From NCBI GenBank assembly GCA_900319235.1, contig ONNR01000008.1:37902-101901 (forward strand): 64,000 bases of DNA, given 5' to 3'. The notes under the pieces are model-generated. The model saw only the letters and a list, made by a program, of their open reading frames with translations. It was not told where the DNA came from and searched no databases. Positions 14,759 to 46,445 of this stretch are shown here, in pieces. Made by a program: the position numbers and the translations under genes. Origin of the DNA: an uncultured Prevotellaceae bacterium (lineage in GTDB: Bacteria; Bacteroidota; Bacteroidia; Bacteroidales; UBA3663). Positions within the stretch are counted from its first letter, which is position 1, and each line of letters starts with the position of its first letter.

Positions 14759-16185
14759 ACCGAATTATTGACCTTGAACCGAAAGCCTTATGGACACAGT
14801 TTGCCAGCATCGCTCAGTTGCCACATCCCAGCGGTTGCCTTGACGAATTGCGCAATTACATCTTGAAAACCGCCCGTCAGCACGCCTTTGAGACGCTTGT
14901 TGACGAAGCTGGTAATATTCTGGTGCGTACAGGCGAAGCACCCGTCCTTTGCCTGCAGGCCCATTATGACATGGTTCCTCAAAAGGACGAGCATGTCACC
15001 TTCGACTTCACCAAAGACTCTCTGCAGCTTCGCATCGAAGGAGATGAAGTGAAGGCTACAGGCACGACGCTCGGTGCTGACAATGGCATCGGAGTCGCCG
15101 CTATGCTCGCCTTGATCGATTCCTCTGAATATACGGATATCTTGAAACACACCCCCTTGGAATTCCTCTTTACGGCCAATGAAGAGACGGGTATGCAGGG
15201 AGCTCGCAAACTGAGTGCCGATTGGCTTAGGTCGCGACAGCTTATTAACCTCGATAGTGAGGAAGAAGGTGTGCTGATGACGGGCTGTGCAGGTGCGGTC
15301 AATATGACAGCCTCGCTGAAATACAAGATGGATACTGCCATCCCACAAGGCGATGCTGCGGTTCTGCTTAGCCTTACAGGTCTACAAGGCGGACATAGCG
15401 GTATGGATATTCATCTCGGTCGTGCCAATGCCTGCAAGCTTATGAATCGTTTTCTCAAGCATGTGGTCGTCAGTTTCGAGGCACGTCTGGGAAGTTTCAA
15501 CAGCGGCACGCTGCGCAATGCCATCCCTCGTGAGGCACAAGCCATCATCACTGTGCCTGAGGAAATAGTCGATGAGGTGATCGACGAAGTGCGTTACTAT
15601 AACGACCTTTTCCGTGAGGAATATCGGCAGAGTGAACCTTATCTAAGTTTTACGGCACAGGCTGTACAGATGCCAGGAGCACTCATCCCTGAAGAAATAC
15701 AGGACGACCTGCTCAATGCCATTGAAGCCTGTCACAATGGAGTGTGGACGATGGGAGAGGGGTATGTCGATACCAGCTCCAATATGGCTCATGTGCAGAC
15801 CAATGCTGAAGGTGAAGCCGAAGTGCTCCTGATGGTTCGCAGTATGAACGAGGAACGCAAACGTGCATGTGCAAGTGCTATCCAGTCAGCTTTCCTGTTA
15901 GGAGGCTTTCGCGTGGATTTTGCCGCAAGTTATGGAGCTTGGGACATCGAGAAGGATGCTCCGATGGTTCAGAAGGCACTCCATGCCAATCCGAATCTCA
16001 AGCTCGACAAGGTGCATTGCGGCCTTGAATGTGGCGTGATTACCGAGAATTATCCCGATATGCAGATTATTTCAGTGGGGCCGACCATCCATCACCCGCA
16101 TTCGCCTCAGGAAAGCGTCGAAATCCCGAGTGTCAGGAAGTTCTGGGACTTCCTCCTCAGCTTCCTCTCCTTAACCAATTGTTAA
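14755..16185 (+). CDS. pepD: aminoacyl-histidine dipeptidase (peptidase M20C)
   Basis: HYDMV, GADNGIG and NEETGMQGA metal-ligand motifs of the PepD/M20 family. 476 aa. Confidence 0.9.
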   Translation: MNRIIDLEPKALWTQFASIAQLPHPSGCLDELRNYILKTARQHAFETLVDEAGNILVRTGEAPVLCLQAHYDMVPQKDEHVTFDFTKDSLQLRIEGDEVKATGTTLGADNGIGVAAMLALIDSSEYTDILKHTPLEFLFTANEETGMQGARKLSADWLRSRQLINLDSEEEGVLMTGCAGAVNMTASLKYKMDTAIPQGDAAVLLSLTGLQGGHSGMDIHLGRANACKLMNRFLKHVVVSFEARLGSFNSGTLRNAIPREAQAIITVPEEIVDEVIDEVRYYNDLFREEYRQSEPYLSFTAQAVQMPGALIPEEIQDDLLNAIEACHNGVWTMGEGYVDTSSNMAHVQTNAEGEAEVLLMVRSMNEERKRACASAIQSAFLLGGFRVDFAASYGAWDIEKDAPMVQKALHANPNLKLDKVHCGLECGVITENYPDMQIISVGPTIHHPHSPQESVEIPSVRKFWDFLLSFLSLTNC

Positions 16186-16213
16186 TTTTTAATTGTTATT
16201 TGTTAATTGATTA
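16176..16213. repeat. TTGTTAATT word stutter (3-4 copies) embedding the pepD stop codon
   Basis: caattgttaatttttaattgttatttgttaattgatta. The pepD TGT-TAA is part of the first word. Confidence 0.7.
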
Positions 16214-20093: not shown

Positions 20094-21317
20094 ATGAATC
20101 GCAAAAATATCATTCTTGCACTCCTCGTCATCCTGAGTGTCATCACCTTCCTCGATCGTACCTGCATCACCTTCTCGAGCATGGAGATCAAGGCCGACCT
20201 CGGCATTGATCAAAGCGGCTGGGGATGGGTGATGAGCATCTTCACCTTGTCCTACGGCTTGATGCAGATCCCTTTAGGCGCTCTTGGCGACAAGATGGGC
20301 CATCGTTGGATCCTGGCCATCATTGTGCTGTGGTGGTCCGCTTTCACCAGCTTTACGGGATTGGCAGGAGGCCTCATGTCAATGCTGGCCATCCGTTTCT
20401 GCTTCGGAATAGGTGAAGCCGGCGCTTCCCCCTGTTCAACAAGCGTCATCAGCCGATGGTTTGAGAAAGACAAAGTGGGCAAGGCACAGGGCTACGTATG
20501 GGCAGCTACACGTCTCGGAGGCGCTGCCGCTCCGTTCATCGTCATCCCGCTGGTCAACAATCAGGGCTGGCGTTTCTCGTTCTATCTGTTGGGCGCCATC
20601 GGTGTCGTCTGGTCTGTCATCTGGTTCTTTTACTATCGTGACAAAAAACCGCAAGCAACCGCGGTAACCCCACAGGAAACCGCCAATAAAACCTCAGTCA
20701 GAATCCCTTGGTGCACCATCTTCCGAAACAGGCAGTTCTGGATGCTTTGCGCCATGTATTTCTTCTATGCGTTTGGCTCGTGGTTCTTCTTCTCTTGGTT
20801 CCCCGAGTTTATGAAGGCAGGACGTGGCTTCTCAGCCGAACAGTTGAAGTATGCCGTGGCCATTCCCTTCATAATGAGTATGTGTGGAAATATCGCAGGC
20901 GGTTATCTTACAGATAAGCTCACCGCAAAATATGGCATCAAGGTGGGCCGTAAGGCGCTTGGTTCCGTTTGCCTTGCCGTATCGGCAGTTTGTATGGTGC
21001 TCGCTGCGTTCATCCCCGGCAAGATAGCTGTCTTCGTCTTCCTTTCTCTTTGCTTCGGCATCTTCGATCTTATGCTTCCTTCGGCATGGGCGCTTTGCAT
21101 CGATCTGGGCAAGAACTTTGCAGGTTCAATCTCTGGCGCGATGAATACGTTCGGCAATCTTGGCGGATTCTGCTGCATGCTGATGTTCGGCTATCTGCTT
21201 GATGCTACCCACAACTACAATCTTCCCCTTTATATGATTGGTGGCATGTTGATTCTCTCCGCCATCCTTTTTGCTTTCATAAATCCCGAAAAGCCTATCA
21301 TCAATGAAACTAAGTAA
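20094..21317 (+). CDS. MFS transporter (anion:cation symporter / acid-sugar type)
   Basis: 12-TM MFS pattern (FLDR, GALGDKMGHRW). The ATG lies 1 nt after the BKACE stop. Confidence 0.85.
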   Translation: MNRKNIILALLVILSVITFLDRTCITFSSMEIKADLGIDQSGWGWVMSIFTLSYGLMQIPLGALGDKMGHRWILAIIVLWWSAFTSFTGLAGGLMSMLAIRFCFGIGEAGASPCSTSVISRWFEKDKVGKAQGYVWAATRLGGAAAPFIVIPLVNNQGWRFSFYLLGAIGVVWSVIWFFYYRDKKPQATAVTPQETANKTSVRIPWCTIFRNRQFWMLCAMYFFYAFGSWFFFSWFPEFMKAGRGFSAEQLKYAVAIPFIMSMCGNIAGGYLTDKLTAKYGIKVGRKALGSVCLAVSAVCMVLAAFIPGKIAVFVFLSLCFGIFDLMLPSAWALCIDLGKNFAGSISGAMNTFGNLGGFCCMLMFGYLLDATHNYNLPLYMIGGMLILSAILFAFINPEKPIINETK

Positions 21318-22536
21318 TTTGCATCCAACGACGCGTATGGTCGTCTTCGACGATGATCCGACAGGCATCCAAACCGTACATGGTTGTCTGCTGGTCACCG
21401 ATTGGAGCGACGACAACATCCGTATGGCAATGCGCGACGAGGTTCCATTCTTCTATATCCTGACTAATACGCGTGCGCTTACGGCCGAAGCAGCTCGCAA
21501 GACATTGACCACAGCCCTCGAAACCGTCATCCGCGTAAATCAGGAATTTGGTTATCGTCTCATCTGTGTCAGTCGTAGTGACTCCTGTCTGCGGGGACAT
21601 TTCCCGTTGGAGCCCAATGTGATGCGCGAAGTCTTGATGAAGCATGGTTACAAGGTTTGGCCAAAGATTCCTTTTGCACCTGCCTTCATCGAAAGCGGGC
21701 GCTTTACGATTGATGGTACACACTATATGCGCGATGGAGAACGGCTTATTCCGGTCTCTGAAAGCGAATTTGCACGCGATAATGTCTTTGGATACAAGCA
21801 TTCTCATCTCGTGGATTATATCAAGGAGAAAGGAGGAAATCCAGAAGACTACGACATCGTGAATGCCCAGAACTATGAAGAATTGAATTCCTTCCGTGAT
21901 GCCCTATTTGCCGAATTGGAAGGGGAGGAGTGTACTGTCGTGATTCGTAGTTCCTCTTCGTTGCCTCGTTCTATGAGCGGCATAGCCGAAAAGCCCTTCC
22001 TCACACGCGAGGATTTGGGAATCCAGGCGAATGGAACAGGTATCTTCATCGTGGGTTCGCATGTGAAGAAGACCACAGAGCAACTTAGTAATCTGCTCAA
22101 GTTATCCAGTGTAAAAGGTATCGAATTGCCGATTGATGACATCCTCAATCATTCCGATGCCCTTATATCCAGGACCTTGGAATCCATCAAGTCATTATCT
22201 TCCAATGGAATCACGCCAGTAGTTTATACTGCGCGCAAGGAGGTTCGTATCGAAGATGCATCACAACGCCTTAGTTTGGGACAAACTGTTTCGGAGTTCC
22301 TTGTTGATATTGTCCGTCAACTTCCTATCCATCCCAATTATATTGTAGCAAAGGGTGGTATCACAAGTCATGACATCTTGACCAAGGGCCTCGCAGTCAA
22401 GACGGCTCGTGTGATGGGCCAGGTCATCAACAGCGTTCCATGTGTGATGACCGAACGCTTCCCCTACATTATCTTCCCCGGAAATGTGGGTGGTCCGCGC
22501 TCATTGGAAGATATATATAAGGTAATAGCACTCTGA
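21304..22536 (+). CDS. four-carbon acid sugar kinase family protein (DUF1537; OtnK/DtnK-like)
   Basis: N-terminal VVFDDDPTGIQTVHG motif and two-domain size (410 aa). Overlaps the MFS gene by 14 nt. Confidence 0.8.
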   Translation: MKLSNLHPTTRMVVFDDDPTGIQTVHGCLLVTDWSDDNIRMAMRDEVPFFYILTNTRALTAEAARKTLTTALETVIRVNQEFGYRLICVSRSDSCLRGHFPLEPNVMREVLMKHGYKVWPKIPFAPAFIESGRFTIDGTHYMRDGERLIPVSESEFARDNVFGYKHSHLVDYIKEKGGNPEDYDIVNAQNYEELNSFRDALFAELEGEECTVVIRSSSSLPRSMSGIAEKPFLTREDLGIQANGTGIFIVGSHVKKTTEQLSNLLKLSSVKGIELPIDDILNHSDALISRTLESIKSLSSNGITPVVYTARKEVRIEDASQRLSLGQTVSEFLVDIVRQLPIHPNYIVAKGGITSHDILTKGLAVKTARVMGQVINSVPCVMTERFPYIIFPGNVGGPRSLEDIYKVIAL

Positions 22537-22935
22537 CGGCCGTCAAAGTGCTATTTCTTGTAGAAACCAGTATTTGTCGGCCGTTAGAGTGCTATTTCCT
22601 ATAGAATCCAACATTGTGACGGCCGTCATAGTGCTATTTCTTGAAGAATCCAACATTGTGACGGCCGTCATAGTGCTATTTCTTGAAGAATCCAACATTG
22701 TGATGGCCGTCAGAGTGCTATTTCCAATAGAATTCAACATTATGACGGCCGTCAGAGTGCTATTTCCTATAGAATTCAACATTATGACGGCCGTCAGAGT
22801 GCTATTTCCTATAGAATTCAACATTATGACGGCCGTCAGAGTGCTCAATCTGTTTGCGGAAGCATCCTGACGGCCGTTAGAGTGCTAAATTCTAAAGAAG
22901 TAAGTATCCTGATGCCCGACAGAGTGCTTACATAC
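22535..22935. repeat. tandem array of ten 41-42-bp units with core TGACGGCCGTCAGAGTGCTATTTC
   Basis: Unit starts at 22535, 22576, 22618, 22660, 22702, 22744, 22786, 22828, 22869 and 22911. Copies 3=4 and 6=7 are identical. The edge copies are degenerate. Confidence 0.95.
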
Positions 22936-23584
22936 CAAGGAAACTGCGTAATCCCTTCACCCCAAGTACAGGCGACGAAAGGACAGGCTTTCCGGTTATT
23001 TCTGACAAGCGTTTTTCCATACGAGCCATGGAACCTTGAGCCAAAACGAACAGATCCACTTTATCAGCAATGCGAGCAGCAGCCTCGGCAATGAGGCGGT
23101 CGTGGGTAGCACCGTCACCGCTTTGTCCAGCTGCAAATGCTCCATCGGCAAGACCTTCAACAAGTTCCACTTCGGTTCCAGCCTCCTTGGCACAGGCAAG
23201 GAGCAGACGGCACGTAGGATCGAGCGTGGTAGGTAGGGTAGAAATCACTCCGATGCGCTTGGCCTCACGCACGGCCTTCTCAGCCATCGGGCGATCGATG
23301 CGGAACACGGGAACTCGTGCAATCTTGTTTCCAAGATCGGCCACATCACCAACCGAAGAACAGGTATTGAAAATCACATCTGCACCCGAATCAGCGGCAG
23401 CATTATAATAATCGAGCAAACGGCGGCATACGGCAGGAGTTACTGCATTGTTGGCAATCACTTCCTTGATGAGTGAACTCTCGGCGATATGCTCAACCTG
23501 CACCTCTGGAAAGTATTCGTGGAAAATCTCAGTTAATGGCCCCACCAGAGCCATTGCGGTGTGTACGCAAACAACTTTTTTCAT
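22928..23584 (-). CDS. Asp/Glu/hydantoin racemase family protein
   Basis: About 218 aa. The two-lobed pattern, with NTCSS and a second Cys-region, is typical of PF01177-type racemases/isomerases. Start at MKKVVCVH. Confidence 0.7.
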   Translation of the reverse strand: MKKVVCVHTAMALVGPLTEIFHEYFPEVQVEHIAESSLIKEVIANNAVTPAVCRRLLDYYNAAADSGADVIFNTCSSVGDVADLGNKIARVPVFRIDRPMAEKAVREAKRIGVISTLPTTLDPTCRLLLACAKEAGTEVELVEGLADGAFAAGQSGDGATHDRLIAEAAARIADKVDLFVLAQGSMARMEKRLSEITGKPVLSSPVLGVKGLRSFLGM

Positions 23585-23710
23585 AATATAATAATGTGTT
23601 AAGGTGTGTAATAATGCCGCAAAGATATAGAAAAATACAATGATTTGCAAATTTTTACCAATATTTCTGAAATTTAACCCTCAAAATTTGGATGATTCTT
23701 CAATTTGCCA

Positions 23711-23718
23711 TATCTTTG
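23711..23718 (+). promoter_or_regulatory. -7 box TATCTTTG
   Basis: TAnnTTTG 29 nt upstream of ATG 23747. Confidence 0.6.
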
Positions 23719-23746
23719 CAGCCACAAAATTCATTAAATAATTATT

Positions 23747-24493
23747 ATGAAATACTTTTATTCTATTCTACTTTCAGCATTTGCAGCAATCGCTTTGACC
23801 TCTTGTCTTGGCGATTCGGATGAATCCGAAAACACCTACACGGCATACGGTTATTACACCATTACTGGTAACTTCAATTCAAGTTATACTCTCTATAGCG
23901 ATTTGGGAGGCAAGGTCATTCCAACTATGTCGAGTGTCGCTCAATTGACTGATAACAAGGGTTTTGGCAATCACTCTCGTGCTATGCTTTATTTCACCTA
24001 CAAGCCTTCTCAGGTGTCGCAGGATCAGCAGACCATCACTGGAGCTGAACTCTATGACGGCAGATATTTCGACGAGTATTTGCCCCTGAGCAAGCAGAAG
24101 GCCGACGAGGCTCTTGTCACCGCTACCGACAGCATCTTCCAAATCAGGGAGCTGAATGACGTCTGGGCTTATCGTGGCTATCTCAATACTGTGATCAATG
24201 CAACCTATTCGTCTGTCAATGGTGTCAACGTCAAGCCAACCGTCAATCTCGTCTATGATCCCGCAACGATTACAGAGAATGCTATCACATTCAACATATA
24301 TTTCAATCGTCATAGCGACCAGAACGCCACCTCCAACGGCCCCGTCTATTTCTACACCTCTCACTACCTGAACTTCATCGATGAACTCGTCCCCGGCTCT
24401 GGCGATGTCACCATCACCATTAAGGCTAGCGACACTGTATCGAAGCAGATTAAAGTCTCCCGCCAGAATTTCCACACTGGCAACTACGAATAA
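23747..24493 (+). CDS. lipoprotein of unknown function (possibly NigD-like)
   Basis: Lipobox ALTSC followed by acidic DSDESE. Beta-rich 248-aa body. The NigD-like assignment rests only on size and layout. Confidence 0.6.
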   Translation: MKYFYSILLSAFAAIALTSCLGDSDESENTYTAYGYYTITGNFNSSYTLYSDLGGKVIPTMSSVAQLTDNKGFGNHSRAMLYFTYKPSQVSQDQQTITGAELYDGRYFDEYLPLSKQKADEALVTATDSIFQIRELNDVWAYRGYLNTVINATYSSVNGVNVKPTVNLVYDPATITENAITFNIYFNRHSDQNATSNGPVYFYTSHYLNFIDELVPGSGDVTITIKASDTVSKQIKVSRQNFHTGNYE

Positions 24494-24517
24494 GATTTAT
24501 CTCTTCACCATAAACTG

Positions 24518-24558
24518 ACCGAAGATGTCTTTTTGTAGACATTTTCGGTTCTTTTTTT
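24518..24558 (+). terminator. rho-independent terminator
   Basis: 13-bp stem ACCGAAGATGTCT / AGACATTTTCGGT (1 mismatch), then TCTTTTTTTG. Confidence 0.8.
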
Positions 24559-24590
24559 GTTAAATCCTTTTGGAATATAGTTTTTTTAGT

Positions 24591-24598
24591 TATCTTTG
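24591..24598 (+). promoter_or_regulatory. -7 box TATCTTTG
   Basis: TAnnTTTG 21 nt upstream of ATG 24619. Confidence 0.6.
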
Positions 24599-24618
24599 CA
24601 GCGTGTTTGCAAAAATAT

Positions 24619-25191
24619 ATGCCAGATAAACTAACTCCGGAACAGCGCCACAAGTGCATGAGCCGCATTCGTGGCAAGGATACCAAACCCGAACTATGGG
24701 TTAGGAAGTATCTATATGCCCATGGCTTCAGGTATCGTCTGCATGAGAAACGTCTGCCTGGCAAGCCCGACATCGTGATACGTCGTCTCCGCACGGTCAT
24801 CCTCGTGAACGGATGCTTCTGGCATGGTCATACCGAGCCGCCCTTGCCATCGCCCGTTGAGGACGGAAAGGGAGGTGTGCGTTGCAAATATTATGTGACT
24901 CCGCACACTCGCGTCGATTTCTGGCAAAAGAAAATCGAACGCAACAAGGCGCGTGACCTTGAAGATCGAAATGCATTGAAACTTCTTGGCTGGAATGTCA
25001 TCGTCATTTGGGAATGCCAAGTTAATCAGGCGGAGATTAGGGAACAAACCCTTCAAAGCCTGGTTCGGACGCTCAGTCAAATCGAACTTGATATTGCTAA
25101 GATCAAACGTCCAGCTGTAAAGAAATATGATTTCGAAGAAGAACAGCCTTACAGTTTGGTTGCAGATGAAAACGATAATCCTTCTTTATAA
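24619..25191 (+). CDS. vsr: very short patch repair endonuclease
   Basis: TKPEL..R..L...G.RYR, PG.PDIV and VNGCFWHGH motifs of Vsr. Contains an extra segment after WHGH and a roughly 50-aa C-terminal tail. Confidence 0.85.
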   Translation: MPDKLTPEQRHKCMSRIRGKDTKPELWVRKYLYAHGFRYRLHEKRLPGKPDIVIRRLRTVILVNGCFWHGHTEPPLPSPVEDGKGGVRCKYYVTPHTRVDFWQKKIERNKARDLEDRNALKLLGWNVIVIWECQVNQAEIREQTLQSLVRTLSQIELDIAKIKRPAVKKYDFEEEQPYSLVADENDNPSL

Positions 25192-32583: not shown

Positions 32584-32597
32584 TATTACTAAATGAT

Positions 32598-32713
32598 AAT
32601 AAGGAATATTAAGGGATAAGAAGGGTCATTAGAGGATAATAAGGGATATTAGGAGATATTATTAAGGGATATTAAGGGACAAATGATTGTTGTGGCCCAT
32701 TCTATCCCTTAAT
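32598..32713. repeat. about 8 direct copies of a 10-11-nt word TAAGGGATAT, plus one inverted copy overlapping the upstream gene's stop
   Basis: taaggaatattaagggataagaagggtcattagaggataataagggatattaggagatattattaagggatattaaggga, then tatcccttaa at 32703. Confidence 0.8.
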
Positions 32714-42713: not shown

Positions 42714-42808
42714 TATTTATTTTATCACGAATTAGAGAATTAAAGAATTTTTTAACCTTTCCTTATTATTTTAATTCCATAATTCTCAAATTCGCTAATT
42801 CGTGATAA
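42705..42808. repeat. CACGAATTA-family element as an imperfect inverted pair, embedding the clpC stop
   Basis: Left arm ttatcacgaattagagaattaaagaatt (42722). The right arm aattccataattctcaaattcgctaattcgtgataa (42773) is its reverse complement (14 nt perfect plus extensions). The clpC stop lies in CACGAATTAA at 42705. Confidence 0.8.
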
Positions 42809-42828
42809 GAAAAAAAGTCCCCCTCTTA

Positions 42829-45800
42829 ATGAATCCCCGAAGAAAGGTCCTGACCGTCCTCTTGGCCGTCGTGACCATCTTGACCCAAGCGCAGCAGGCT
42901 ACATCCCTGCAAATCAACGAGATCTGCCCATCGAACATCGATCAATGGGTTGATCCTTCGTTTAATTATGGCGGTTGGGTCGAGCTTTATAATCCCACTT
43001 CCACGGCCGTCAATATCACCGGCTGGTATCTGAGCGACAAGAAGGAAAAGCTGCAGAAGGCCAAGGTCACGCAGACAACCTCCGTGCCCGCCAAGGGCTT
43101 CACAACCCTTTGGTTCGACCATTACAGCAAATGGTCGAAGAAGACCATCGATATGAAGCTCGATTGCGATGGCGGCACGCTCTATCTCAGCGACGCCCAG
43201 GGCAACCTCGTCACTTCGCGCGAATATCCCGAGGCCGTGTCGCGCTGCTCGTGGGCACGTACGTCCGATGGTGGCGACACGTGGAGCTATTGTGCCAATC
43301 CCACCCCAGGCAAGACCAATGCGGGCTGCAAGTTCGCCACCGAGCGTCTTGAAGAACCGGAAATCGACACACCCTCGCAGGTCTTCGGTACGTCAAGCAT
43401 CGCCGTCCACGTCACCATTCCCGAAGGCTGCACTTTGCGCTACACCACCGACGGCAGCGCGCCCACCGAGAAGAACGGCTACAATTCGCTGACGGGCGTC
43501 TTTTCGACCACTGTCACGCGCACGTTCCGCTTCCGTCTCTTCCGCGACGGCTACCTGCCCAGCGCCGTGGCTACGCGAACATTCATCAAGAGCACGCGCG
43601 ACATCGACCTGCCCATCCTCTCCATCACGGGCACGCAGGCCAATTTCTACGGCGACTCGCTGGGCATCTTCGTACAGGGAGTCAACGGACGCCCGGGCAA
43701 CGGACAGAGCTTCAAATGCAATTTCAATATGGATTGGGAGCGTCCCTCGGTGTTCGAATATTTCACGGCCGATGGCAAACTGCTCTTTGAGCAGGAGGCG
43801 GGCATCGAGCGTTGCGGTGGCTGGAGCCGAGCCTGGTCGCCCGCTTCGTTCAAGATCAAGGCCAACAAGCGCTACGAGGGCCAGAAGCACCTCCTCTATC
43901 CTTTCTTCGAGGAGAAACCCTACCTCAAGCACAAGACCGTGCAGATTCGCAATGGTGGCAACGACAACGGTTGTCGCGTGCTGGACGTCATTCTCCAGCA
44001 GATAGCTGCCACCTCGGGCCTCGACATCGACTACCAGGCCTATCAGCCCGTCGCCCATTTCGTCAACGGCGTGTGGAAGGGTGCCATCAATATGCGCGAG
44101 CCCAACAACAAGCACTTCGTCTATTCGAACTACGGCTACGACGAGGACGAGATCGACCAGTTCGAGATGTCGCCCGATTCGGGCTATTGCCAGAAGTGCG
44201 GCACCTACGAGGCGATGCAGGACCTGCTCACCCTTTCTAAGTCGGCTTCCGACGCCAATACCTACAAAGCCATCTGCGACCTCATCGATATGGACGAGTT
44301 CTGCAACTATATGGCCATCGAATTCTACCTGCGCAACAGCGACTGGCCGCAGAACAACCTCAAGGCCTGGCGCCCGCGTCGCGAGGACGGCCGCTTCCGC
44401 TTCGTGCTTTACGACCTCGATGGCTTCGACTGGACAAGTTCGCCGTTCAACGACTTCACCAACAAGCGCATCTATACCTTCAATCGCCTCTATGGCGAAT
44501 CGCAGCAGTACATCACCAAGGAGATCGAGGTGGTCACCATCTTCCTCAATCTGCTCAACAACGAGACCTTCCGCAAGAAGTTCATCGACACGTTCTGCCT
44601 CATTACCTATTCGGTGTTCGAACCTTCGCGTTGTGCCGAAATCTGCGAAAGTGTGGCCAACCGCGTGGCGCACACCCAAGGCCTTTACAACAACGAAAGT
44701 CCTTGGGGCACAGCCAACAACGTGAGGTCGGCGCTCTCGACATCGCGGCAGAACACCCTGATGAATTTGCTCAAAAGCTACAGCCGTATGAAGCTGTCGT
44801 CGCAATCCCCCCGCACGGCAAAGCTTGAGGCGAATATTCCTGAGGCGCGCCTTTCGTTCAACGGCATGCCCATCCCCACCGGCAAGTTCAACGGCAAATA
44901 CTACGCGCCCGTCACCGTCAAGGCCGAAGCCCCGTCGGGCTACGTCTTCACGGGTTGGCGTGTCGCTTCTACCACCAGCAGCGAGCTCTTCCCCACCACG
45001 CAAACCTGGCGCTACTACGACAAGGGTTCGCTCGACGGAATCAACTGGAGTGATGCCGACTACAACGATGGTTCGTGGGCTTCGGGACCTGCTCCGTTGG
45101 GTTACTACGTGGGCGGAAGTCGAGCCTATGGCACCACCATCAGCTACGGATACAACGTCAACAGCAAGTATCCGACCTACTATTTCCGCACGTCGTTCGA
45201 CCTCGCCGAAGCGCCCATGGGCAACGAGACGTTCCGCCTTTCGTTCACCGTCGACGACGGAATGATTGTCTATGTCAACGGCGTTGAGGCCATACGCTAC
45301 AATATGCCCGGTGGCAACGTCACCTACAACACCTACGCCACAACTTACGCCCAGGGCAACCCCGACAGCGGCACCGCCAACCTCAATGCCTCGCTCTTCA
45401 GGCAGGGCACCAACGTCATCGCCGTCGAAGTGCACAACAACTCCGGCTCTTCGACCGATATCTATTGGAGTGCCTCGTTGTCGAAAAACCTGACGTCGGG
45501 CGGAGAACTGGTGTGCAGCGATCCCGAATATGAACTCCCAGCAAGCAGCCGCGACCTCATCGCCTGCTTCGAACCCATCGCTTCTGCCGACACCCCTCTC
45601 CCACCTGTTGTCATCAACGAGGTGAGTGCCGACAATGGCATCTACATCAACGACTTGTGGAAGAAATCCGATTGGATTGAACTCCACAACACCACCAATC
45701 AGGACATCGACCTCGCGGGTATGTATCTCTCCGACAAGGTGGGTAAACCCGACAAGTGGCAGATAGGCGCAGACCTCGCTGAAGATTCCTCCATCTCGAC

Positions 45801-46257
45801 CATCATTCCCGCCCACGGCTACCGCATCATCTGGTGCGACAAGGAGGAGGGCATCCGTGACCTCCACGCCCCCTTCAAGCTCGAAAACGTCGATCAGAGC
45901 CAGGTCATCCTCTCGGCTGCCGATGGCTCGTGGAGCGACACGCTCACCTATTGCGCCCATCTCCCTGCCGAAACCGTCGGGCGCTATCCCGATGCTTCGC
46001 GCAACGTCTATCTGATGACGCGCACCACCATCGAGCGCACCAACCAGCTCACCACCATCGCCGCCACCGTCGAGCAACCTGCCGAGAGTGCCATCCAGCA
46101 GGTACTCTCCGACGACATCCTCGATGACAGCTATTCCATCTTCGACCTCAATGGCCGCCTTGTCCGCGAAGGCCGTGGCTCCCTCACTGAGGACCTTCCC
46201 TCGGGCGTCTATATCGTCCGCAGCAAGGGCTCGGCGTATAAGGTCGTGGTGCCGTGA
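42829..46257 (+). CDS. CotH kinase family protein with two lamin-tail (LTD) domains, Fn3-associated domains and a T9SS C-terminal sorting domain
   Basis: Two LTD signatures (LQINEI...WVELYNPT..ITGWYLSD and VVINEV...WIELHNTT..LAGMYLSD). The central CotH region is homologous to the other two CotH ORFs here. C-terminus IFDLNGRLV...GVYIVRSKGSAYKVVV. Confidence 0.85.
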   Translation: MNPRRKVLTVLLAVVTILTQAQQATSLQINEICPSNIDQWVDPSFNYGGWVELYNPTSTAVNITGWYLSDKKEKLQKAKVTQTTSVPAKGFTTLWFDHYSKWSKKTIDMKLDCDGGTLYLSDAQGNLVTSREYPEAVSRCSWARTSDGGDTWSYCANPTPGKTNAGCKFATERLEEPEIDTPSQVFGTSSIAVHVTIPEGCTLRYTTDGSAPTEKNGYNSLTGVFSTTVTRTFRFRLFRDGYLPSAVATRTFIKSTRDIDLPILSITGTQANFYGDSLGIFVQGVNGRPGNGQSFKCNFNMDWERPSVFEYFTADGKLLFEQEAGIERCGGWSRAWSPASFKIKANKRYEGQKHLLYPFFEEKPYLKHKTVQIRNGGNDNGCRVLDVILQQIAATSGLDIDYQAYQPVAHFVNGVWKGAINMREPNNKHFVYSNYGYDEDEIDQFEMSPDSGYCQKCGTYEAMQDLLTLSKSASDANTYKAICDLIDMDEFCNYMAIEFYLRNSDWPQNNLKAWRPRREDGRFRFVLYDLDGFDWTSSPFNDFTNKRIYTFNRLYGESQQYITKEIEVVTIFLNLLNNETFRKKFIDTFCLITYSVFEPSRCAEICESVANRVAHTQGLYNNESPWGTANNVRSALSTSRQNTLMNLLKSYSRMKLSSQSPRTAKLEANIPEARLSFNGMPIPTGKFNGKYYAPVTVKAEAPSGYVFTGWRVASTTSSELFPTTQTWRYYDKGSLDGINWSDADYNDGSWASGPAPLGYYVGGSRAYGTTISYGYNVNSKYPTYYFRTSFDLAEAPMGNETFRLSFTVDDGMIVYVNGVEAIRYNMPGGNVTYNTYATTYAQGNPDSGTANLNASLFRQGTNVIAVEVHNNSGSSTDIYWSASLSKNLTSGGELVCSDPEYELPASSRDLIACFEPIASADTPLPPVVINEVSADNGIYINDLWKKSDWIELHNTTNQDIDLAGMYLSDKVGKPDKWQIGADLAEDSSISTIIPAHGYRIIWCDKEEGIRDLHAPFKLENVDQSQVILSAADGSWSDTLTYCAHLPAETVGRYPDASRNVYLMTRTTIERTNQLTTIAATVEQPAESAIQQVLSDDILDDSYSIFDLNGRLVREGRGSLTEDLPSGVYIVRSKGSAYKVVVP

Positions 46258-46285
46258 TCACTTTCCACGGAATATAGATAAACAC

Positions 46286-46445
46286 CCCTTCGTACCGCGC
46301 GGCGCAGCCTCGCCAAAAGATTGCACCACTCCGTACCAAGCGGAGCAGCCTCGTCGCAAGATTGCTCCCTTTCGTACCAAGTGGAGCAGTCACGCTGCAA
46401 GATTGCACCACTCCGTCCCTCGGGGAGCAGCCGTCATCGCAACCC
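46286..46445. repeat. 41-bp tandem repeat x4, each unit hairpin-capable
   Basis: CGTACC-type unit starts at 46291, 46332, 46373 and 46414 (exact 41-bp period). Units contain GGAGCAGC..GCAAGATTGCTCC type inverted segments. Confidence 0.9.

Follow-up and report, generated by a model that had tools for sequence, protein, structure and literature searches.

A dispersed minisatellite family of palindrome-centred 42-bp units in rumen Bacteroidales

Interspersed palindromic repeats such as repetitive extragenic palindromes (REP) and bacterial interspersed mosaic elements (BIME) belong to the classic features of proteobacterial genomes and are still poorly understood. The mycobacterial interspersed repetitive unit-variable number tandem repeat (MIRU-VNTR) loci of Mycobacterium tuberculosis consist of tandem units of 40-100 bp at tens of intergenic loci, where they abut or overlap stop codons. 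MIRUs are not palindromic, lie inside operons oriented with the genes and vary widely in copy number with no preferred size. The sopC site of plasmid F and iterons are built of tandem units of ~43 bp with a short inverted repeat, in one array per replicon beside parA/parB or rep, and a set number of such units assembles a nucleoprotein complex. A stretch of 64,000 nucleotides from an uncultured Prevotellaceae bacterium (GenBank assembly GCA_900319235.1, contig ONNR01000008.1, positions 37,902 to 101,901 of the forward strand), referred to as the window, carries an array of ten tandem units of 41-42 bp at 22525-22928. The array fills the gap between the convergent genes of a four-carbon acid sugar kinase and an Asp/Glu racemase-family protein. 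There is little doubt that it is one copy of a dispersed non-coding minisatellite family of rumen Bacteroidales with about ten 42-bp palindrome-centred units. It is just as firmly held that the palindrome types A, B, D and E share one lattice in register and that the arrays lie behind stop codons, mostly in convergent gaps, in either orientation. No description of a 42-bp Bacteroidales or Prevotella repeat was found in the literature and the family is apparently undescribed so far.

REP and BIME elements are imperfect extragenic palindromes of 20-40 bp with a conserved internal mismatch, located at gene 3' ends and in convergent gaps, and they form mosaics of more than one palindrome type with regular spacing for which gyrase or integration host factor (IHF) binding and termination have been proposed (PMC2817692, PMC3733652). 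They are the nearest functional analogue of the present arrays, which also show a palindrome with an internal mismatch, the 3'-end location, mosaics and regular spacing. The present units are all direct, as seen in one-sided array orientation scores, whereas REP/BIME units alternate. The present arrays also differ in having no GTAG or CGTC foot, a strict 41-42 bp grid, a size of about 10 units and a Bacteroidales host; no singlets or doublets were seen and no REP-associated tyrosine transposase (RAYT) gene was found nearby. The RAYT genes of subclass 2.6 in Bacteroidetes are reported to have atypical, weak secondary structures on their flanks, and copies of these structures occur at other places in the genome (PMC6006769). 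The BrickBuilt element of Porphyromonas gingivalis is a non-coding minisatellite borne on a MITE (miniature inverted-repeat transposable element) at 19 intergenic loci, with a 23-nt unit without spacers, leader and tail subunits, small inverted-repeat ends and promoter activity (PMC4596501). The present family is likewise a dispersed, intergenic, clade-restricted non-coding minisatellite of Bacteroidales, but its unit is 42 bp long and palindrome-centred, no leader, tail or terminal inverted repeat was found in it, and no sequence relationship is evident. Leptospira interrogans has non-coding satellite units of 37-69 nt at several places in its genome, for which no palindromic lattice or preferred size was reported, and among the 119 reference bacteria of one survey Leptospira alone had dispersed non-coding satellites with long units (PMC6749651). 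Both the sequences and the phylum are unrelated to those of the present arrays. The resemblance to MIRU-VNTR loci lies in dispersed intergenic tandem units at stop codons with a strain-variable number, and the difference in the palindromes and the preferred size. As expected of a VNTR or minisatellite, the number of units varies between strains and the interior is homogenised. Unlike sopC and iterons, the family has many chromosomal copies without par or rep genes. It would add a Bacteroidales example of unusually strict geometry, with a shared 42-bp grid and a preferred size of about ten units. This geometry, common to unrelated palindromes, makes a structural or protein-scaffold role directly testable.

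The initial annotation of the window had described ten phased units with a 41-42-bp period. The units and the period were confirmed; each start had been placed 1 nt too high. In a fuzzy search with the 19-nt core the ten units start on the plus strand at 22534, 22575, 22617, 22659, 22701, 22743, 22785, 22827, 22868 and 22910. The whole array (22525-22928, plus strand) runs from the left arm of palindrome 1 to the last core and comprises nine full 41-42-bp units and a tenth core. Tandem Repeats Finder (TRF) reported 22534-22845 with a period of 42, 7.5 copies, 90% matches and a score of 449. A 15-mer core with up to 3 mismatches matched 19 times in the window compared to 1.49 ± 1.18 times in shuffles, and 17 of the 19 matches were inside the array. 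The 12-bp palindromic core, TGACGGCCGTCA, is perfect in six units. The orientation of the array is set by asymmetric linkers (AGCAYTN-core-GAGTGCTATTTCC). Units 1-7 (22534-22826, plus strand) form a homogenised interior in which unit 3 is identical to unit 4 and unit 6 to unit 7. Units 8-10 (22827-22928, plus strand) are edge units with unique linkers (CAATCTGTTTGCGGAAGCATCC and AAATTCTAAAGAAGTAAGTATCC), and the unit-8 type is also the penultimate unit of the paralogous arrays L004 and L017. The unit alignment bore out the homogenised interior and decayed edges that had been noted before, and the two linker sub-variants were found as described, with units 8-10 carrying linkers different from both. 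The stop-to-stop fit held as well. The kinase stop TGA (22534-22536) forms the first three bases of unit 1, and at the other end the first base of the racemase stop (22928-22930, minus strand) is also the last base, 22928, of the unit 10 core. These overlaps set the functional extent at 22525-22928. Open reading frames (ORFs) running through arrays are merely stop-free repeats.

The window array is real and no assembly artefact, a possibility raised at the outset. The array recurred with its units in the same order, 9 or 10 in number, in eight other contigs with an identical racemase, from other samples and different assemblers. In the window array exact periodicity extends over 119 nt at most, and collapse during assembly is unlikely because this is shorter than the assembler k of 127. 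In one scaffold (L148, from ERZ28653799) a run of N lies inside the orthologous array, so its unit count is a minimum. In the rest of the 64-kb window the profiles of the A and B units found no solitary unit, so the family takes the form of arrays and not of scattered single hairpins.

Dispersed copies were found in genomes and metagenomes. A genome scan with one genome per species and the query TGACGGCCGTCANAGTGCT gave 22 stretches, made up of 13 isolated single sites in unrelated phyla and nine stretches from Bacteroidales metagenome-assembled genomes (MAGs). The 13 sites outside Bacteroidales are of the order expected by chance (~17 by our own estimate). Arrays were present in eight of the nine rumen or gut Bacteroidales stretches; L014 breaks off 138 nt after its first unit, at the contig end, with unrelated sequence after the unit. 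The sheep omasum MAG RGIG6006 contains a stretch (L021) 96% identical to window 22300-24604 with an orthologous 10-unit array. Two more arrays of the window unit, both paralogous, lie on other contigs of this MAG (L004 and L010), giving at least three array loci in the 96%-identical genome. Five further Bacteroidales MAGs, recovered from buffalo, cattle and reindeer, likewise had arrays (L009, L012, L016, L017 and L018). In a metagenome scan with a slightly degenerate core at least 120 contigs were matched, almost all with arrays. All family-wide counts given here (spacing, size, context and pair statistics) are among the matches listed, and the unit and context counts include related sequences, so the events are not independent. 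The initial annotation had considered that the unit might be scattered genome-wide as single copies in the manner of a generic repeat. Dispersal was indeed found; elsewhere the unit again occurred in arrays of about 10 and not as singles. No match to the array was found in viral contigs, plasmids or phages, so it is no phage or plasmid module. Racemase homologues with 86-88% identity suggest Prevotella and Palleniella as the closest named relatives of the window organism, and the family belongs to an uncultured rumen Bacteroidales clade related to these genera.

The A unit has the core TGWCGG/CCGWCA with the flanks AGCAYTN and NAGTGCT, and its consensus is taGgAGcAAGCAtTcTGTCGG/CCGTCAGAGTGCTaTaTCCta. 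Palindrome B is ATGACCAATCTTGG/CCAAGATTGGTTAT, with the centre GGCC as in A, and the B unit has the consensus TCGaaGCATgACC...GGTTATgC. A alternates or mixes with B in many arrays. The 143 sequences contained 795 A centres and 231 B centres. Neighbouring centres were 41 or 42 bp apart in 812 of 875 cases and the remaining distances were multiples (83/84 and 125/126), bar a few deviations of 1-2 bp. This register was common to A-A, A-B, B-A and B-B pairs. The mean centre spacing was 41.8 bp, or 4 × 10.45. About one fifth of the spacings (168) were 41 bp, which breaks any reading frame; the arrays are therefore non-coding, and coding repeats were rejected on this ground. Each arm is ~13 bp long, and 9-10 of the 13 positions match. 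A perfect "founder" first unit was rejected as a general rule, as the arm match of first units was only marginally better than that of the others (10.1 compared to ~9.3 of 13).

No fewer than eight distinct loci have a composite of ~0.9 kb, in which about ten A/B units, two spacer units and a D array stand in one 42-bp register. The spacers are two conserved non-palindromic 42-bp units, in register with the rest, and the first D centre lies 125-126 bp (3 × 42) past the last A centre. The D unit is ATGTCCnCnAACGAACGTTnGnGGACAT. D arrays mostly have 8-12 copies, with few shorter, and a 41-bp E array sometimes follows the composite. Composites were located at L037 (312-1193) and also in L141, L065, L050, L053, L083, L073, L097, L101 and L136. 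The window itself has an E-like array at 46283-46432 (3.7 copies of a 41-bp unit), 26 bp past the stop of the ORF at 42802-46257. The first 17 nt of its unit match the E unit beside the A/D arrays in L037 and L141. At the syntenic position of this E-like array the reindeer MAG stretch L018, with flanks 82-87% identical, has an 11-unit A/B array.

Array size was counted in 99 arrays that lie more than 150 bp from the ends of their contigs. Ten units were present in 50, nine in 20 and eleven in 8, and some nine-unit arrays carry an extra degenerate unit. With related copies collapsed, 44 of 59 lineages had 9-11 units and only 10 had 2-7. The mode of about ten units was alike in A-only, BA9, (AB)5 and B-rich arrays, and the D arrays are of a like range. 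The rarity of short arrays is real because short arrays assemble without difficulty.

Strains with an identical racemase differed by a single unit at the window locus, 9 or 10. The hypervariable VNTR proposed in the initial annotation is thus right as to copy-number variation, but the variation is modest. The order and unique linkers of units 8-10 were kept in all nine contigs (the window and the eight others) with few point differences, and units 1-7 were reshuffled or converted between these strains. The orthologous arrays L028 and L036 had 9 and 11 units. The mean unit identity within an array was 0.70-0.86 and orthologous arrays were similar, compared to 0.65-0.78 between paralogous arrays of the same genome. 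Arrays at one locus were closer to each other than to other arrays of the same genome. Since identity within an array is about that of orthologous arrays and exceeds that of paralogous ones, each array evolves in concert. Judged by these identities the arrays are no recent copies of one another, and the units are homogenised by recombination within each array. In short-read assemblies of abundant rumen bacteria the arrays lead to breaks or scaffold gaps, and they are likely to cause contig breaks in rumen assemblies repeatedly. They could be used as strain-typing markers.

All arrays examined were intergenic. Where both neighbours were known the context was convergent in 27 cases, tandem in 22 and divergent in 5, and the distance between array and stop codon was typically 0-60 bp. 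Gene 3' ends were abutted in either array orientation (47 compared to 54 cases). A canonical terminator stood directly before the array in L073/L129 and L077. The only recurrent neighbours were BspA-type leucine-rich repeat (LRR) proteins and one HTH_18 cluster. Small AraC-type HTH_18 proteins of 138-162 amino acids end 3-33 bp from arrays, most of them in a DUF6261-amidase-HTH cluster. Their genes are located at L009 796-1215, L041 4489-4905, L042 2202-2618, L057 1336-1752, L059 4386-4802, L099 735-1151 and L089 3718-4206. HTH_18 was rejected as a recurrent neighbouring DNA-binding protein, as six orthologues and one paralogue with 27% identity amount to two independent cases only. In L049, L050, L077, L085 and L112 an AT-rich stretch of ~75 nt bracketed by inverted repeats of 20-25 nt lies 60-300 bp from the arrays. 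These repeats differ between loci yet stay complementary, and the stretch looks like a conserved large hairpin or cruciform element.

Folding of the whole array was far better than that of shuffled sequence (z = -15 and -13 on the plus and minus strands, respectively). This stems largely from pairing between the cores of different units, which are self-complementary. In single-unit folds only the first palindrome formed a strong hairpin. This 30-bp near-perfect palindrome (22525-22554, one mismatch) was recovered as described earlier; it overlaps the last three kinase codons (I-A-L), which form its left arm, and the stop codon. Its hairpin has an energy of -16.4 kcal/mol on the plus strand, where AUUUCUU follows, and -20.2 kcal/mol on the minus strand. 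It probably also terminates the kinase operon. Six folds of three further units on both strands gave -5 to -11 kcal/mol with z from +0.5 to -2.1; five were no better than shuffled and one was marginal (z = -2.1). In a lenient terminator scan two of ten units passed, the interior units having poor U tracts. The expanded bidirectional terminator suggested in the initial annotation is thereby weakly supported: the first palindrome is a strong hairpin, but the other folds are mostly no better than shuffled.

Pair statistics were computed on 638 distinct A units, 201 B units and 165 D units, and no compensatory covariation was found in their stems. Some symmetric positions were ~99% invariant (A12/T31) and adjacent "pairs" were only 35-65% Watson-Crick. 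One mid-stem position in each of the A, B and D families was depleted of Watson-Crick pairs and enriched in T/T. The counts were TT 358, AA 81, AT 103 and TA 75 at A pair 4 (178 Watson-Crick), TT 110, AA 46, AT 25 and TA 8 at B pair 7, and TT 49, AA 46, AT 33 and TA 21 at D pair 4. G-U pairs outnumbered A-C pairs by 1043 to 743 (1.4-fold), with a direction inconsistent between pairs. The stem, orientation and terminator results speak against a strand-specific function in RNA and against selection for simple stem-loops. Two readings fit them: sequence-specific recognition of the duplex on a four-turn lattice, or a single-strand DNA enzyme that recognises a mismatched hairpin. The duplex is favoured because unrelated palindromes share the conserved grid and array size.

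Known element types and mobility functions were also searched for. Rfam gave only chance microRNA-like hairpin matches, for the window region at a permissive threshold and for five related loci at the gathering threshold. No ORF with HUH and YxxNP motifs was found in six frames of ~970 kb around 140 arrays or in the window, and no transposase gene of the arrays was found at the array-bearing loci searched. The flanks of 13 representative arrays and composites had no terminal inverted repeats, shared termini, direct repeats or target-site duplication, and a MITE, which is defined by such termini, was rejected. Relatives at the window locus differ in gene order and offer no directly comparable empty site. 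Neither the A nor the B consensus has a GT[AG]G or CGTC foot, CGTC occurring only inside the paired core. CRISPR arrays have constant repeats, unique spacers of ~26-72 bp and cas genes or a leader; such an array was rejected on account of the 42-bp period, linkers of 16-23 bp repeated within the array and no cas gene among the annotated neighbours. A type III toxin-antitoxin array of the ToxI type, whose short RNA repeats stand immediately upstream of the toxin gene in its orientation, was rejected as well; here the downstream genes vary and are often convergent, with no recurrent family or toxin gene. A restriction-modification link, considered for the GGCC centre and a nearby Vsr gene, was set aside with GGCC at 0.76 observed/expected in the window, similar to several 4-bp palindromes.

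The best explanation as a whole is a REP/BIME-like interspersed minisatellite that serves as a phased DNA lattice for a putative binding protein, with a rough probability of 0.45. As its mechanism, a phased lattice for protein binding where transcription units end is put forward tentatively. The lattice would act as duplex DNA and not as RNA, each palindrome being the site of a putative binding protein. A spacing of four helical turns would put about ten sites on one helix face, and a nucleoprotein block of roughly fixed length (~420 bp) would form at the ends of transcription units. Its role may be architectural or topological, as proposed for enterobacterial BIME/REP clusters binding gyrase and IHF. 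The protein-binding array of the initial annotation is in this sense still the best functional guess, though as a genome-wide architectural repeat and not as a plasmid-type site. A bolder version, which is unlikely, is a new class of chromosomal architectural element in which proteins on A, B, D and E, at about ten sites four turns apart, would form a ~420 bp nucleoprotein particle or closed loop where transcription units end, with array length under stabilising selection. Several points weigh against the lattice. No protein that binds the units was identified. A conserved mid-stem mismatch such as the T/T here marks hairpins on which single-strand DNA enzymes act (REP/RAYT, attC) more than duplex operators, and it keeps that alternative alive. 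At 26-28 bp the palindromes are long for operator sites. Gene conversion between arrays needs units in register and could by itself preserve the 42-bp register. The upper size limit may be censored by short-read assembly, as seen in the N gap of L148 and the many arrays at contig ends, and the inclusion of related sequences in the counts applies here too.

The T/T mismatch leads to a selfish REP-type element without host function, in which single-stranded hairpins would be recognised by an HUH tyrosine transposase or another structure-specific recombinase and arrays would persist where they are least harmful. One candidate enzyme would be the Bacteroidetes RAYT subclass 2.6, whose repeats, the weak structures with genomic copies introduced above (PMC6006769), are described as atypical and without GTAG. 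Three palindrome families conserve the mismatch, at a position depleted of Watson-Crick pairs. In oriented A units T/T is 4.4 times commoner than A/A, so the two strands form different hairpins. The 3'-end location and the avoidance of divergent promoter regions are typical of REPs and MITEs, and the arrays are lineage-specific, Prevotella sp. relatives having none at the window locus. This origin is nonetheless somewhat unlikely. The 970 kb around 140 arrays and the window held no ORF with HUH and Y motifs, and the foot, terminal inverted repeats and target-site duplication are all missing. Direct orientation on a strict 42-bp grid is not expected from the insertion of individual hairpins, and solitary units are absent from the window. 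Paralogues of the same genome are more diverged than orthologues, against recent transposition, and the mode of about 10 units goes unexplained. The same mode bears on a neutral minisatellite, a tandem duplication spread and homogenised by slippage and unequal crossing-over with no binding partner, in which ten units would reflect descent from 10-unit ancestors and the failure of short reads on longer arrays. One- or two-unit changes between strains, identical neighbouring units and decayed edges are classic minisatellite behaviour, the orthologous L028 and L036 differ by two units, many arrays lie at contig ends and one scaffold has its N gap inside an array. Neutrality is nevertheless judged quite improbable, since 2-7-unit arrays would assemble easily yet are rare. 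The mode is the same in arrays of very different composition, some with units too diverged to collapse in assembly. The families have kept both the 41-42-bp register and several invariant symmetric bases, and the 0.9-kb composite of an A array, two spacer units and a D array recurs at no fewer than eight loci.

A function in RNA is a further alternative, in which the array would be transcribed as the 3' end of the flanking genes and act as a bidirectional terminator, a 3' stabiliser, small hairpin RNAs or a protein sponge. It draws on the strong first hairpin with its U-rich run, the low whole-array folding energy on both strands, array starts 0-60 bp after stop codons, the 1.4 to 1 excess of G-U over A-C and the locus itself, where no other terminator lies between kinase and racemase and array-free relatives have canonical terminators after the racemase. 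It is distinctly improbable all the same. The interior units are weak hairpins with poor U tracts, most units fail even the lenient terminator scan, and the low global energy comes from core pairing between units. No compensatory covariation, no orientation preference relative to the abutting gene, no Rfam match and no consistent promoter or toxin gene adjoining the arrays were found, and some arrays lie directly downstream of a canonical terminator. A locus-specific loading array of the iteron/centromere type, modelled on sopC of plasmid F, had been the analogy drawn in the initial annotation from the tandem ~42-bp units, the short inverted repeat in every unit and the spacing of four helical turns. 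The absence of ParA, ParB and Rep genes had been recognised at the same time, and none lies within ~5 kb of the window array. The flanks are chromosomal metabolic genes in conserved synteny, many paralogous arrays occur per genome and across species, and there is no similarity to plasmid or phage records. The analogy fails for want of a cognate par or rep gene, the locus-specific element is refuted by the dispersed copies, and such an origin is extremely improbable.

The kinase gene (21304-22536, plus strand; Pfam SBD_N and NBD_C) has its last codons, I-A-L-stop, supplied by the array. The gene of the Asp/Glu racemase-family protein (22928-23584, minus strand; 218 amino acids) has its native C-terminus intact, with a stop codon that abuts the last array core. 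The array neighbours are genes for asparaginase, BKACE, a major facilitator superfamily (MFS) transporter, the kinase, the racemase, a NigD-like protein, Vsr, a hydrolase and an SDF transporter. In Prevotella sp. relatives with a racemase 88% identical, kinase and racemase genes are co-directional and 53 bp apart with no array between them. The array is therefore lineage-specific at the kinase/racemase locus. The kinase orthologue of a Prevotella sp. MAG (L153 2420-2510) ends in ...YEKYSMKA and the stop codon. Because the Prevotella sp. orthologues are co-directional, the racemase gene would have been flipped in the window lineage with the array at the junction. By this comparison of gene order the window array looks like it sits at an inversion junction, and arrays of this kind coincide with rearrangement junctions.

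The Vsr gene, encoding a very-short-patch repair endonuclease, is located at 24607-25191 of the window, with no cytosine methyltransferase gene among the annotated neighbours. In one strain (L143 336-1703) an IS110-family transposase gene lies between the Vsr gene and a gene for a 248-amino-acid protein. This insertion polymorphism is ~1.3 kb from the array and is not present in the window or the other strains. TRF predicted two other tandem repeats in the window. One is located at 32595-32679 with a 10/20-bp unit (GATAATAAGG) in ~8 copies and the other at 16177-16209 with a 7-bp unit (AATTGTT) in 4.7 copies.

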